Part shown: one piece after another, positions 7,039 to 9,432 of the stretch
Layout of the letters: every line of letters begins with the position of its first letter
Position numbering within the stretch: the stretch's first letter is position 1
DNA from: a virus
Lineage: Duplodnaviria > Heunggongvirae > Uroviricota > Caudoviricetes
Virus record (IMG/VR): IMGVR_UViG_2703718837_000007
Direction: 5' to 3' (one strand)
Length of the DNA: 14,864 nucleotides
Notes under the pieces: model-generated
Database searches by the model: none
What the model saw: only the letters and a program-made list of their open reading frames with translations
What the model was told of the DNA's origin: nothing
Translations under genes and position numbers: made by a program

Positions 7039-9432
7039 ATGGCTAATTACCGTGATTTGTTAGAGCAGGCTGGCGCACGTTACGGTGTGCCAGAAGGGTT
7101 GATGACTGCACTGGGTGCCAAGGAGTCTTCTTACAACCCTGCCGCAGTAAGCTCCGCCGGGGCTGTAGGATTGACTCAGGTCATGCCTGGGACATGGCGT
7201 GATATGGGTTATACCGATGAGCAAATGCAAAACCCCGAATATCAGGCTGACGCTGGCGCGCGCTATCTGGCAAAGATGTACCAGCAGTTTGGTAACTGGC
7301 GTGACGCTCTTCAGGCTTATCACGACGGTCCCGGCAACGTTATGAAGGCAAAGCGTGGTGAATATACGCCAGGACCTGAAGGCCGCGGTTACGTTGATGA
7401 TCGCTTTGCTCAATGGGCGGGTGACCCGGTGACAGACTCAACAGTCGAACAGCGCGCCACCTCTGCAAAGGTACATCCTCAGCAAGACCCTAACAACCCG
7501 TTTGCACAACTGGAAGCACAGTCATCCGAACAAGTATCGGCATCAGGCGTGCAGTCAGACCCAAATAATCCATTTGCTCAGATTGAGCAGCAGGCAGCCA
7601 GTCAGCAGCCACCTCAACCCGTAAGTTCTGTCGCACCGAAACCTGTTCAGCAGCAAGGCGGAATAATGTCTGACCTTGGTAATGGACTTGCTGAAACCGG
7701 GCGCGGCTTACTACAGGCAGGAATCAACGTAGCGAACATACCTGCTGAACTCACTGATGCTGTAACAAGCGCGGCGGCTTGGGCTGGCGGTAAACTCGGC
7801 ATTGGCGATGGTACATATCAACCAGCACCACGAGTAACAACGCAGGGATTAGAGCAGGACTTTGGCCTTCAGCAAGGCGCGCTGACTCCACAAACGACAG
7901 AGGGAAGGGTATTTGCTGAAGCATTGCCTTACCTCACTCCTGCTGGCGTTGAGAGAGCGGCAACACAGGCACCAACACTTGCTGGTCGAATTGCTCAGGG
8001 GGCAACTCGCCTTCTAGCAGAAAACGCAGTTGGATCACTTGCTGCAAATAGTGCGAAAGATGATGCGGAAGCACTCGCCACCGATTTAGGCGTTGGTGTA
8101 CTTGCTGGCGGTGCTATTAACGCTGCCGGACGTGGATTAGGTGCTGCTTATCGTGGCGTTCGTGGCGCTATCTCGCCAGAAGCGCAGCAGGCTATCAGAT
8201 TTGCAGAGCGTGAAGGAGTTCCTCTTCACACCACAGACCTGTTACAACCAACTTCCCGCGTCGGAAAAATGGCGCAGACTACAGCAGAAAATATCCCTCT
8301 GGCTGGCACAAGCGGAATGAGAGCAACGCAACAGGAAGCGAGAAGCCAGTTGGTGCAGAGATTTGCCGATAAATTCGGTGAGTATGATCCAGCGGTTGTT
8401 ATTGACAGCCTTAAAGCGAAAACATCAGGAATTCGTCGTGCCGCCGGTAATCGACTGGAGCAGGTTCAGAATGCTATGGCTGGAGTAAACATTCAGCCTG
8501 CGCGAGCAATTCAGCAGATTGATACAGAAATATCTAATCTGCAGAAGCTTGGTAAGGTCGCCGATAACGAGACTATTTCAAAACTTCAGTCCTATCGTGA
8601 TGAGCTTGTTCGCAATGCTGGTCCTGATGGTCCGGTAAATCTGGATTTGAAGCAATTAAGCGACCTGCGCAGCCAGTTCAGAATGGACGTGAAGGGTGAG
8701 CGACCAGTGTTACCAAACCGTTCCGATGCTGCCATTCAGCGCGTTTACAAGGCAATGACTGACGATATCAATGGTGCCATTGGTCAGAATCTTGGCAACG
8801 ATACTCTCCGTAAATATCAGCAGGCCAATGCCGTCTACGCTGACGAAGCGGCGAAACTAAAGAATACCAGGCTGAAGAATGTTATCATGAAAGGCGACCT
8901 GACGCCGGAAGTTGTCAACAACATGCTATTCAGCAAGAACAAATCGGAAATTAAGACTCTGTATAACTCAGTTGGTCGTGTTGGCAGGGCGCAAATGCGC
9001 AATGGCATCATTGGAAAGGCGATGGAGAAATCTGGCGGATCCCCTGACCAGTTCCTTCGACAGCTTAACATCCTGCAAAACCAGACTGGCATCACATTTA
9101 AAGGTCAGGAAGCCGCTTATCTGAAAGGATTGAAAAACTACCTTCAATCCACTCAGCAGGCAGCAAAAGCGGCAGTAACAACACCAACGGGGCAGCAAAC
9201 TATCCCGTTCATTATCGGGTATGGGACGGCAATGAACCCGGCGACAACTGGCGCAGCGGTAAGCTACGGACTTCTTACTCGCGCCTATGAGAGCGAGCCA
9301 TTCAGAAATGCAATGCTCCGAATGGCAAACACCCCACGCGGATCAACAGCGTTTGAGAAAGCCATGCAGCAGGCGCAAAAGGCCATTAACGCCCTGACGC
9401 AGGGGGCTAAGTCTGATGCGTTGTCAGAATAG
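7039..9432 (+). CDS. Ejection (E) protein, gp16-position, 797 aa, with N-terminal family-1 lytic transglycosylase (SLT) domain
   Basis: Residues 20-110 or so: AKESSYNPAAVSSAGAVGLTQVMPGTW...ARYLAKMYQQFGNWRDALQAYHDGPGNV, the canonical SLT catalytic-domain signature with the catalytic Glu in KES. Followed by a P/Q-rich linker and a long Ala/Gly-rich region. Longer than P22 gp16 (609 aa). Confidence 0.8.
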   Translation: MANYRDLLEQAGARYGVPEGLMTALGAKESSYNPAAVSSAGAVGLTQVMPGTWRDMGYTDEQMQNPEYQADAGARYLAKMYQQFGNWRDALQAYHDGPGNVMKAKRGEYTPGPEGRGYVDDRFAQWAGDPVTDSTVEQRATSAKVHPQQDPNNPFAQLEAQSSEQVSASGVQSDPNNPFAQIEQQAASQQPPQPVSSVAPKPVQQQGGIMSDLGNGLAETGRGLLQAGINVANIPAELTDAVTSAAAWAGGKLGIGDGTYQPAPRVTTQGLEQDFGLQQGALTPQTTEGRVFAEALPYLTPAGVERAATQAPTLAGRIAQGATRLLAENAVGSLAANSAKDDAEALATDLGVGVLAGGAINAAGRGLGAAYRGVRGAISPEAQQAIRFAEREGVPLHTTDLLQPTSRVGKMAQTTAENIPLAGTSGMRATQQEARSQLVQRFADKFGEYDPAVVIDSLKAKTSGIRRAAGNRLEQVQNAMAGVNIQPARAIQQIDTEISNLQKLGKVADNETISKLQSYRDELVRNAGPDGPVNLDLKQLSDLRSQFRMDVKGERPVLPNRSDAAIQRVYKAMTDDINGAIGQNLGNDTLRKYQQANAVYADEAAKLKNTRLKNVIMKGDLTPEVVNNMLFSKNKSEIKTLYNSVGRVGRAQMRNGIIGKAMEKSGGSPDQFLRQLNILQNQTGITFKGQEAAYLKGLKNYLQSTQQAAKAAVTTPTGQQTIPFIIGYGTAMNPATTGAAVSYGLLTRAYESEPFRNAMLRMANTPRGSTAFEKAMQQAQKAINALTQGAKSDALSE
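7486..7587 (+). repeat. Two copies of a 10-residue peptide motif DPNNPFAQ[L/I]E within the ejection protein linker
   Basis: Copy 1 at 7486..7515 (gac cct aac aac ccg ttt gca caa ctg gaa), copy 2 at 7558..7587 (gac cca aat aat cca ttt gct cag att gag). Same peptide, 8 of 10 codons differ at the wobble position. Confidence 0.7.

Follow-up and report, generated by a model that had tools for sequence, protein, structure and literature searches.

The stretch analysed here, called the window throughout, comprises the 14,864 nucleotides of IMG/VR virus record IMGVR_UViG_2703718837_000007 and corresponds to the late right-hand portion of a P22-like (Lederbergvirus) prophage. Our subject is a decapeptide, DPNNPFAQ(L/I)E, that occurs twice in the gp16-class ejection protein of this prophage, together with the C-terminal tail of the gp20-class ejection protein encoded immediately upstream. 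The order gp14-gp7-gp20-gp16-(immI)-tailspike, by which P22 gp16-class genes are recognised, is present in the window (Pfam), and coliphage IME10 shares 96.7% DNA identity with window positions ~5000-10250, the gp16-class open reading frame 7039..9432 included. The features of the two genes are listed below; tail sequences, here and later, run to the C-terminus.

5707..7038, plus strand: gene for the gp20-class ejection protein, 443 residues, the proposed partner (Pfam PF16928 Inj_translocase, E=1e-67, residues 10-225)
6943..7035, plus strand: C-terminal tail mini-domain of gp20, APQASIDYLKQPPELSIDFINRYGYLPSLGQ, a conserved island with no Pfam match
7039..9432, plus strand: gene for the gp16-class ejection (DNA transfer) protein with an N-terminal SLT domain, 797 residues
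7039..7410, residues 1-124, plus strand: SLT lytic transglycosylase domain and its C-terminal helix, a passenger (Pfam PF01464, E=3e-25, residues 7-110)
7450..7470, plus strand: conserved QRATSAK element between the SLT domain and copy 1
7486-7515, residues 150-159, plus strand: motif copy 1, DPNNPFAQLE, DNA GACCCTAACAACCCGTTTGCACAACTGGAA, orthologous to the post-SLT copy in lytic P22-like phages
7516..7557, plus strand: 14-codon spacer, fixed in length and free in sequence
7558-7587, residues 174-183, plus strand: motif copy 2, DPNNPFAQIE, DNA GACCCAAATAATCCATTTGCTCAGATTGAG, found in the Lederberg type only
7588..7653, residues 184-205, plus strand: proline/glutamine (P/Q)-rich flexible linker, a recombination hot spot
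7654..9429, residues 206-797, plus strand: gp16 body, with homology to Sf6 gp13-type bodies from GGIMSDLG onwards

The two copies start 72 nt, or 24 codons, apart and agree at 9/10 residues and 21/30 nucleotides. The third position differs in 8/10 codons: seven of these differences are purely synonymous, and in the Leu/Ile codon positions 1 and 3 are both changed. At the nine shared residues two codons are identical, against 4.0 expected under full synonymous randomisation with the codon usage of the window's late genes (P(X<=2)=0.15); silent sites between the copies are saturated, and their divergence does not go beyond chance. Selection for DNA divergence as a means of avoiding recombination, which we considered, is not needed, because the copies are saturated rather than over-dispersed. 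The repeat is evident in protein only, and neither Tandem Repeats Finder nor a direct-repeat finder pairs the copies. An earlier, sequence-only reading of this DNA had reported the repeat, with a distance of about 70 nt and 8/10 differing third positions, and had argued against recent duplication or slippage; its coordinates and counts are correct, and both the saturation of synonymous sites and the silence of the repeat finders bear out its argument.

Upstream of the copies lies a predicted SLT lytic transglycosylase domain (88.6 bits against a PF01464 cut-off of 21.3), whose catalytic Glu-Ser pair (E29-S30) is invariant in 61 aligned homologues. The body is of the P22 gp16 class, matching PHROG 770 'DNA transfer protein' with E=1e-239 over residues 108-797. 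The same reading had placed the repeat in a linker between the SLT domain and the body, followed by a P/Q-rich segment, and both placements stand: the Pfam match ends at residue 110, the PHROG 770 body follows, and the P/Q-rich stretch is SQQPPQPVSSVAPKPVQQQ at residues 187-205. The element just upstream of copy 1 is kept as QRATSA[KR] across alignment A1, which covers lineages with ~50% SLT identity and in which Q138, A140, T141 and A143 are invariant. A third F-A-Q-aromatic element, DDRFAQW (window 7396-7416, residues 120-126), closes the last SLT helix; it is kept as [DE]RF[NDA][QE][WF] in all homologues, with R122 and F123 invariant, and its DNA is what the direct-repeat finder paired with motif copy 2.

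Selection on the repeat can be read from close relatives. Scanned with an N-terminal-region alignment, IMG/VR provided 68 loci which, together with phage records and genome hits, yielded the Lederberg-type module in 33 distinct DNA and 23 distinct protein versions with SLT identities of 72-100%. Every version keeps DP[ND]NPFAQ[LIV]E and DP[NS]NPFAQIE, 24 residues apart, and the 14 residues between them are rewritten from version to version (AQSSEQVSASGVQS, SQASAQSAPSSVQS, SQATGNPVEPHVQD). Between loci L012 and L057 the motif differs by 9 synonymous and 2 non-synonymous changes and the spacer by 1 and 11 (Fisher P=0.0006); between L012 and L061 the counts are 9 and 3 against 1 and 10 (P=0.003). 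Orthologous motifs thus change almost solely at synonymous sites and spacers mostly at non-synonymous ones, a pattern which indicates that the motif peptide is under purifying selection, as had been proposed. Since DNA identity between the two copies of a protein is as low as 21-23/30 throughout the Lederberg-type versions, the duplication is older than the divergence of these lineages. The module of SLT domain and motif is joined to at least three downstream sequences (window type, Sf101 type and L056). The P/Q linker is the junction to at least two different gp16 bodies, those of the window and Sf101 types, and in L056 the mosaic junction lies directly 3' of motif copy 2.

We read the decapeptide as the form taken in Lederbergvirus by a more widely distributed twin motif, canonically N-x-F-D-Q-F-D. 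This motif occurs in disordered stretches at the N-terminus of gp16-class proteins, or close to it, whether or not the protein has an SLT domain; the window has NPFAQLE at residue 153 and NPFAQIE at residue 177. Across the family the Asn, the Phe, the Gln and the second aromatic residue are conserved, and the Pro position varies (F, V, I, M, A, D, L, Q, T). Two copies are also present in Sortsnevirus, Murrayvirus, Skarprettervirus, Hungariovirus and Kosakonia phages, lytic P22-like phages with ~50% SLT identity, in which one copy is extreme N-terminal and the other lies ~40 residues past the SLT domain; the pairs seen are MANFFDQFD/SGNFFDQFDE, MANIFDQFD/GGNVFDQFG, MANPFAQFA/SNNPFAQFS, MANMFAQYA/EGNLFAEYA and MAFNFAATFG/TNKFASQFG. 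The homologue comparison of motif conservation and copy number that the sequence-only reading had suggested therefore found the motif kept, in two copies, in the related lineages examined. In alignment A1 window copy 1 aligns with the post-SLT copy, N153 and F155 being invariant, and window copy 2 has no counterpart. The window type starts MAN-YRDLLE and the others MAN-[~31 residues including the motif]-Y.DLLE; in the window type the N-terminal copy appears to have been swapped for a second tandem copy, with the total held at two. Two copies thus come in tandem after the SLT domain (window), on either side of it (Sortsne-, Murray-, Skarpretter- and Hungariovirus, Kosakonia), in tandem at the N-terminus of a protein without SLT (Shewanella phage ZP9) or flanking another passenger (Aeromonas phage 4_4512).

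Lineages with NMFAEF twice, NFFEQFG/NFFAQFH and NVFEQFG/NVFAQFG were added when 1.84 billion representatives were searched exhaustively with HMMER. This search also returned a representative with three copies (P0218: MANPFAQFDN, GNPFAQFDK, DPNNPFVQFDK), an [AR]FLxG type with four, and a GPWEKY/GPWS[NK]Y type whose two copies are both N-terminal; representatives P0218, P0223 and P0215 could not be traced to any locus. A word-indexed protein search with the linker alone gave fragments and alternative N-termini only. When the SLT domain was included with the linker, or alignment A1 was the query, the hits were limited to short generic SLT proteins that lack the motif. A scan of genome contigs gave mostly cellular Rhodobacterales SLT proteins, again without it; the cellular SLT homologues do not carry the motif.

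The two copies of a protein vary in concert. They agree at 5.4/7 positions within a protein and at 3.0/7 between proteins, a within-protein likeness that 0/100,000 permutations reached (1/5040 in a conservative seven-class set). Recent gene conversion is not the cause, because the silent sites of copies within a protein usually differ. This concerted variation points to both copies tracking what may be one binding site.

The passenger between or beside the copies need not be an SLT domain. At L199 (IMG/VR 3300045020_000042) NxFDQFD copies at residues 3 and 164 flank another passenger domain (…KAKYGAAAEKAGKALGIDPDLILGQWGEETRWGKSIIPG…). In other gp16-class proteins the SLT slot is filled by a ~70-residue domain, G.IE.GNIDIHNRP.V.N.DGSISTVRS.S....G.EVLIPTVS.DG.IMS..EA...F..TG.HLG.F, that lies between or after the adaptor motifs and looks like an alternative passenger. 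This 'GNIDIHNRP' domain was located at L056:4550-4800, in Aeromonas phage 4_4512 gp16 (L168, residues ~25-95), in CurroJimenez gp16 (L176, residues ~55-130) and at L207, L211, L213 and L215.

The counterpart of the motif is found at the end of the preceding gene. The first ~170 residues of the window gp20 are 94-100% identical to those of Sf6 (gp12), 683R2 and Gally; an intragenic mosaic breakpoint lies near residues 170-200, past which identity is 10-50% (against L080, which is Sf6, L081 and L082), and the C-terminal ~270 residues are common only to phages with the SLT and motif module. Recombination has freely parted the module from the body of gp16 and the N-terminus of gp20; with the C-terminal part of gp20 it always stays together. 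In all motif-bearing lineages inspected gp20 ends in a conserved tail of ~30 residues, whose widespread form is ...AIDYL..NP...F[KR]AKYGYLPEG. The window tail, with FINRYGYLP, is a variant of it that follows the general pattern ...AI[DN]YL..P...F...[YF]G[YF]LP.... Further tails are AQAAIDALYAEPTPTRKEQFKAKFGFLPEGL in sortkaff and PQQALDYLRKNPDNATKEQFRAKYGYLPEGI in Skarpretter, and Hungariovirus and Kosakonia phages have variant tails together with variant motifs. The tail persists where the upstream proteins have diverged beyond Pfam recognition, as the sole part still recognisable, and a tblastn search with the tail alone led to two new phages, Shewanella phage ZP9 and Aeromonas phage 4_4512. 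The gp16-class protein of ZP9 starts MANPFDQFDAQQENPFDQFDSE and has no SLT domain; that of 4_4512 has MANPFDQFDE, an unrelated passenger domain and then PGNPFDQFDT.

How closely motif and tail go together was measured on 80 loci from an IMG/VR scan with the tail alignment, among whose downstream proteins 54 are distinct and visible over 200 residues or more. Strict copies, defined as N-x-[FY]-[DA]-[QKERA]-[FYLI]-[DE], were counted in the first 300 residues. Two copies follow such a tail in 53/54 proteins, 50/54 having exactly two strict copies and 3/54 a near-canonical second one (NVFDQFG in two proteins, NPFEQFD in one); a single copy is seen in 1/54. The copies are spaced by 11-161 residues (median 19), large values reflecting a passenger between them, and most of these motif carriers have no SLT domain. 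The motif was found in 0/11 gp16 proteins that follow other tails (P22, Sf6, HK620, 683R2, Gally, VSe13, 720R6, CurroJimenez and the GPW type). Besides this near-perfect co-occurrence there is co-variation: the tail F-[KR]-x-K-Y goes with D/D at motif positions 4/7 in 77/78 copies, the remaining copy having D/E, and the window-type tail F-I-N-R-Y goes with A/E in 26/26. The sequence-only reading was right in locating the motif in the linker, but it had overlooked the independence from SLT, the wider N-x-F-D-Q-F-D family and the pairing with the upstream gp20 tail.

Other motif types have other tails. The class with GPWxxY twice pairs with GYTF[LI]GGDPSNxNxWRK[DN]; this lineage (L169, L172 and L173 in IMG/VR; P0222, P0229, P0259) bears an SLT domain and has two N-terminal copies, M[AS]GPWExYQ ... 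GPW[NS]KY. In P22 the tail ...SGIKFTVE accompanies a gp16 N-terminus of MKVTANGKTFNFPDG / MKVTANGKTFNFPDGTS... (L163). In Sf6 (L080), HK620 (L164), VSe13, 720R6 and CurroJimenez (L174-L176) the tail ...FSSLWGD, also present in 683R2 and Gally, accompanies MAKAWKDVIASPQYQAL, and it does so even when the remainder of the gp20 C-terminal half is different. The P22- and Sf6-type pairs suggest that several alternative junction types may exist. P22 gp16, Sf6 gp13 and HK620 gp16 are like the window protein in gene position, in their PHROG 770 body, in having a mosaic N-terminal module followed by a P/Q-rich linker, and in that a given gp16 N-terminal module pairs with a given gp20 C-terminus; they differ in having no N-x-F motif, YGYLP tail or SLT domain, so any junction 'key' in them would be a different one. 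The VSe13 gp16 (L174, QOI68465.1), named 'lytic transglycosylase domain-containing protein', starts MAKAWKDVIASPQYQ... and shows by eye no SLT-like sequence in the part inspected; its name was probably carried over, via the shared body, from SLT-bearing relatives.

On balance we lean towards a reading in which the two motif helices of gp16 dock onto C-terminal tails of gp20 and thereby tether gp16, with its passenger, to the gp20 tube. According to this model, each copy would form a short amphipathic helix with an Asn/Pro cap, a Phe and a hydrophobic residue three positions later. After ejection gp20 would assemble into a periplasmic tube, and the two motif helices of one gp16 would bind gp20 tails directly, in the periplasm and with one motif per tail. 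Docking would hold gp16 and its passenger, here the SLT transglycosylase, at the distal end of the tube, where the tethered gp16 would help to finish the trans-envelope DNA conduit; by analogy, the gp16 body is proposed to be the inner-membrane and cytoplasmic part of that conduit.

Structure prediction is in keeping with such a role. An AlphaFold2 run on gp16 residues 1-230 gave a confident SLT domain (predicted local distance difference test, pLDDT, 88-98) and short helices in the linker at residues 133-142, 156-163 and 178-187. The helix of copy 1 (156-163) is of modest confidence, with a block pLDDT of 65 against 57 and 44 in its flanks, and that of copy 2 (178-187) of low confidence; neither copy was confidently docked on the SLT domain in this model. 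The C-terminal half of gp20, modelled by single-sequence AlphaFold2, ends in two short low-confidence helices over its last 37 residues. Such pictures of the copies and the tail are what would be expected for segments that fold on binding. The idea, already put forward from the letters alone, that the decapeptide is a short linear binding motif gains support from its being a conserved island with a predicted short helix in a disordered and varying linker.

The model also agrees with what is known of related machines. The one in situ structural study found for the P22 group reports sequential assembly of gp7*-gp20-gp16 and extra-cytoplasmic complementation of gp16-less virions by gp20-less ones (PMC13622523); both the assembly order and the complementation fit a gp20-gp16 junction formed after ejection. 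In T7 gp16 an SLT domain (residues 4-145) and a loop (146-205, a 50-residue loop) are followed by two 'tip' helices, F206-R224, that act as a 'molecular tape': one T7 gp16 contacts two gp15 subunits and makes the C-terminal half of gp15 fold. The start of the tip helices, KPFAKDFWE (P205-F206), is conserved in Teseptimavirus, Eapunavirus and Przondovirus. The window protein has the same architecture, with an SLT domain (residues 1-124), an extended loop and two short predicted helices, and in both proteins the helices start with Pro-Phe-Ala (NPFAQLE and NPFAQIE in the window). The two SLT domains align up to window residues 123-124 (hhalign), and a match to PHROG 342 reaches window residues 189-190 by its envelope alone. 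The T7 system differs in that its tip helices are not repeated, whereas some members of the window motif family stand in proteins without SLT or right at the N-terminus. It differs too in that the T7 partner consists of large folded gp15 domains to which binding has been shown, whereas the partner proposed here is a short tail to which we infer binding.

Several points weigh against direct docking. The segments of T7 gp16 and of the window protein that follow the SLT domain could not be aligned (hhalign), and homology with the tape is not supported; for this reason we treat the T7 tape as a functional analogue and not as a member of the family. Because the gp20 tail and the gp16 N-terminus are encoded side by side, their co-occurrence partly reflects physical linkage and shared descent. 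The co-variation between D/D and A/E rests on few independent events, those of the window type and of the variants in Kosakonia and C130_2. Annotation is absent from the IMG/VR loci, where open reading frames were called by our own script. Finally, L171 is a partial exception, having a YLPE-type tail with 12 extra residues and a gp16 in which the twin repeat is SWA[AQ]KRQQF.

The alternative that survives best, although we regard it as improbable, is that motif and tail bind not each other but a shared third partner (the portal barrel, the gp10 hub, gp7 or a host envelope protein) and are co-retained as a set, for instance as ordered-exit or assembly-site signals. The co-occurrence data are equally compatible with this. 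However, the charge-type co-variation and the class-for-class matching are more simply explained by direct contact, and the genes that carry the pair have otherwise diverged past recognition.

We give somewhat less weight again to the possibility that the motif is a virion-incorporation, or capsid-targeting, signal that loads gp16 into procapsids via scaffold, coat or portal. N-terminal capsid-targeting peptides are known from the internal proteins of T4, and the motif resembles them: T4 IPIII-type peptides are short, N-terminal and borne on ejected proteins packaged in the head, and one or both copies of the motif are extreme N-terminal in most lineages (MANxFDQFD). There is nevertheless no sequence similarity between the two, and the motif of the window family is twofold, can be internal (neither window-type copy is N-terminal) and co-varies with the tail of its neighbour, not with head genes. 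Near-identical gp7 and gp20 N-termini are moreover shared by Lederberg-type phages that have the motif and those that lack it, the swap being confined to the junction of gp20-C and gp16-N, and co-variation with the gp20 tail would stay unexplained unless gp20 and gp16 were loaded as a complex, which again requires binding.

More doubtful still is a host periplasmic partner, such as a chaperone, Tol-Pal or a peptidoglycan-associated factor, that would position the ejection protein or its SLT domain. The motif lies in a presumably periplasmic part of the protein and loosely resembles the aromatic translocation epitopes of colicins. Use of a periplasmic chaperone in HK97 injection, cited in PMC10461980, would provide a precedent. 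Within the same host genus, however, different variants occur (NPFAQ[LI]E, N[FIV]FDQFD and FNFAATFG in phages of E. coli/Enterobacteriaceae), and canonical NxFDQFD is the same in Shewanella, Aeromonas and Escherichia phages as well as in numerous contigs from the environment. What the motif follows is therefore the tail type encoded by the phage, and not the host.

That the motif folds back to regulate or auto-inhibit the adjacent SLT domain might be suspected, as the copies flank SLT in many lineages and a possibly related F-A-Q-W element ends the last SLT helix. We rejected this very improbable idea because carriers without SLT exist, and indeed form the majority; in addition, the predicted structure shows no confident docking on the SLT domain and cellular SLT homologues are devoid of the motif. 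We likewise discarded the idea that cleavage at flanking motifs excises the SLT domain, both copies being able to lie on the same side of the passenger. A functionless remnant of an old duplication, of the sort common in P/Q-rich disordered regions, is contradicted by the synonymous/non-synonymous contrast between motif and spacer, by conservation across host genera and by a copy number fixed at two, and we give it practically no credence.

A likeness to a further known motif class was set aside. Eukaryotic-style EH-binding NPF motifs share with the window variant the Asn-Pro-Phe in a disordered region and the presence of more than one copy, but in our family the Pro is not conserved (NFF, NVF, NIF, NMF, NAF, NDF), and we hold the likeness to be coincidental. 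To our knowledge, neither these phages nor their hosts would be expected to have an EH domain.

The gene itself is already known; in Sf101, for instance, it is annotated as 'transglycosylase'. Docking segments between subunits of podophage ejectosomes are also known as a kind; what appears undescribed is the twin motif, the copy-number rule, the independence from SLT and the pairing with the gp20 tail. A review of ejection proteins states that P22-like phages lack the peptidoglycan hydrolase domain, and motifs of this sort are not described in it; in the literature searched we found no description of the twin motif or the gp20 tail. No relative of the window gp20 or of the gp16 body was found in the PDB, and no Pfam family matches the motif region, the gp20 tail, the 'GNIDIHNRP' domain or the Kc259 membrane protein discussed below.

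Around the two genes the window carries the following Pfam-identified genes.

3696-4544: tail needle
4544-4999: gp14 (DUF2824)
5002-5697: gp7 (P22_gp7)
9522-9815, minus strand: Mnt/Arc-like repressor
9856-12027: tailspike (Head_binding/Beta_helix)

The prophage is defective. The gene-10 homologue is abutted at its 3' end by a NinE-like open reading frame (3078-3458), and Sf6 similarity begins there, from ~nt 3484; this prophage has thus lost the nin, lysis, terminase, portal, scaffold and coat region. The gp16-class gene itself remains intact, yet this copy cannot produce virions. An exoribonuclease-like open reading frame on the minus strand (2785-3192) is without the first 46 positions of its profile. 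Past the tailspike, at 12065-14864, are three minus-strand open reading frames of 120, 306 and 506 residues, the 306-residue one being a family-2 glycosyltransferase; by their sizes and order we take them to resemble a gtrABC O-antigen modification cassette.

Beyond the docking itself, the gp20 tail and the twin gp16 motif might together constitute a portable two-part 'connector code', a notion we put forward as speculative and, with all four of its properties taken jointly, as rather doubtful. The code may be better conserved than any other element of ejection proteins that are otherwise hypervariable. It may set compatibility groups that limit which ejection-gene mosaics are viable, with at least four putative key/lock classes: NxFDQFD/YGYLP, GPWxxY/GDPSNxNxWRK, the P22 type and the Sf6 type. 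It may allow interchangeable passengers on the conduit (SLT, the 'GNIDIHNRP' domain and others). Lastly, it may be open to mimicry, with the Kc259 membrane protein acting as a decoy in superinfection exclusion.

This protein of Kosakonia phage Kc259, QVV96912.1 (L004:6564-6926, minus strand), has 120 residues and two predicted membrane helices and is encoded at the position of sieA in P22. Its predicted periplasmic C-terminus (...KHEAKPAGNPFAKFARY, GNPFAKFARY) is the phage's own variant of the motif, the gp16 copies of Kc259 being MANPFAQFA and SNNPFAQFS. It could serve as a decoy against ejectosome assembly of superinfecting phages. No homologue was found in phage records or IMG/VR, and no PHROG match either; an antisense chance match of like quality (NPNPFAELKY, inside a tailspike gene) counsels caution with single hits.

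The meeting of three ejection proteins in the periplasm is structurally known for T7, and the ejection proteins of the P22 group are too mosaic and divergent for ordinary homology to be of help. If the docking of motif on tail is true, it would provide a mutable handle on the gp20-gp16 junction and a sequence signature for pairs of ejection proteins in unannotated metagenomic phages. It would also supply a rule for workable swaps of ejection genes, of use in host-range engineering and in the delivery of passenger enzymes, and a possible target for natural or designed entry blockers. In these phages a ten-residue motif and a thirty-residue tail outlast the divergence of everything else.

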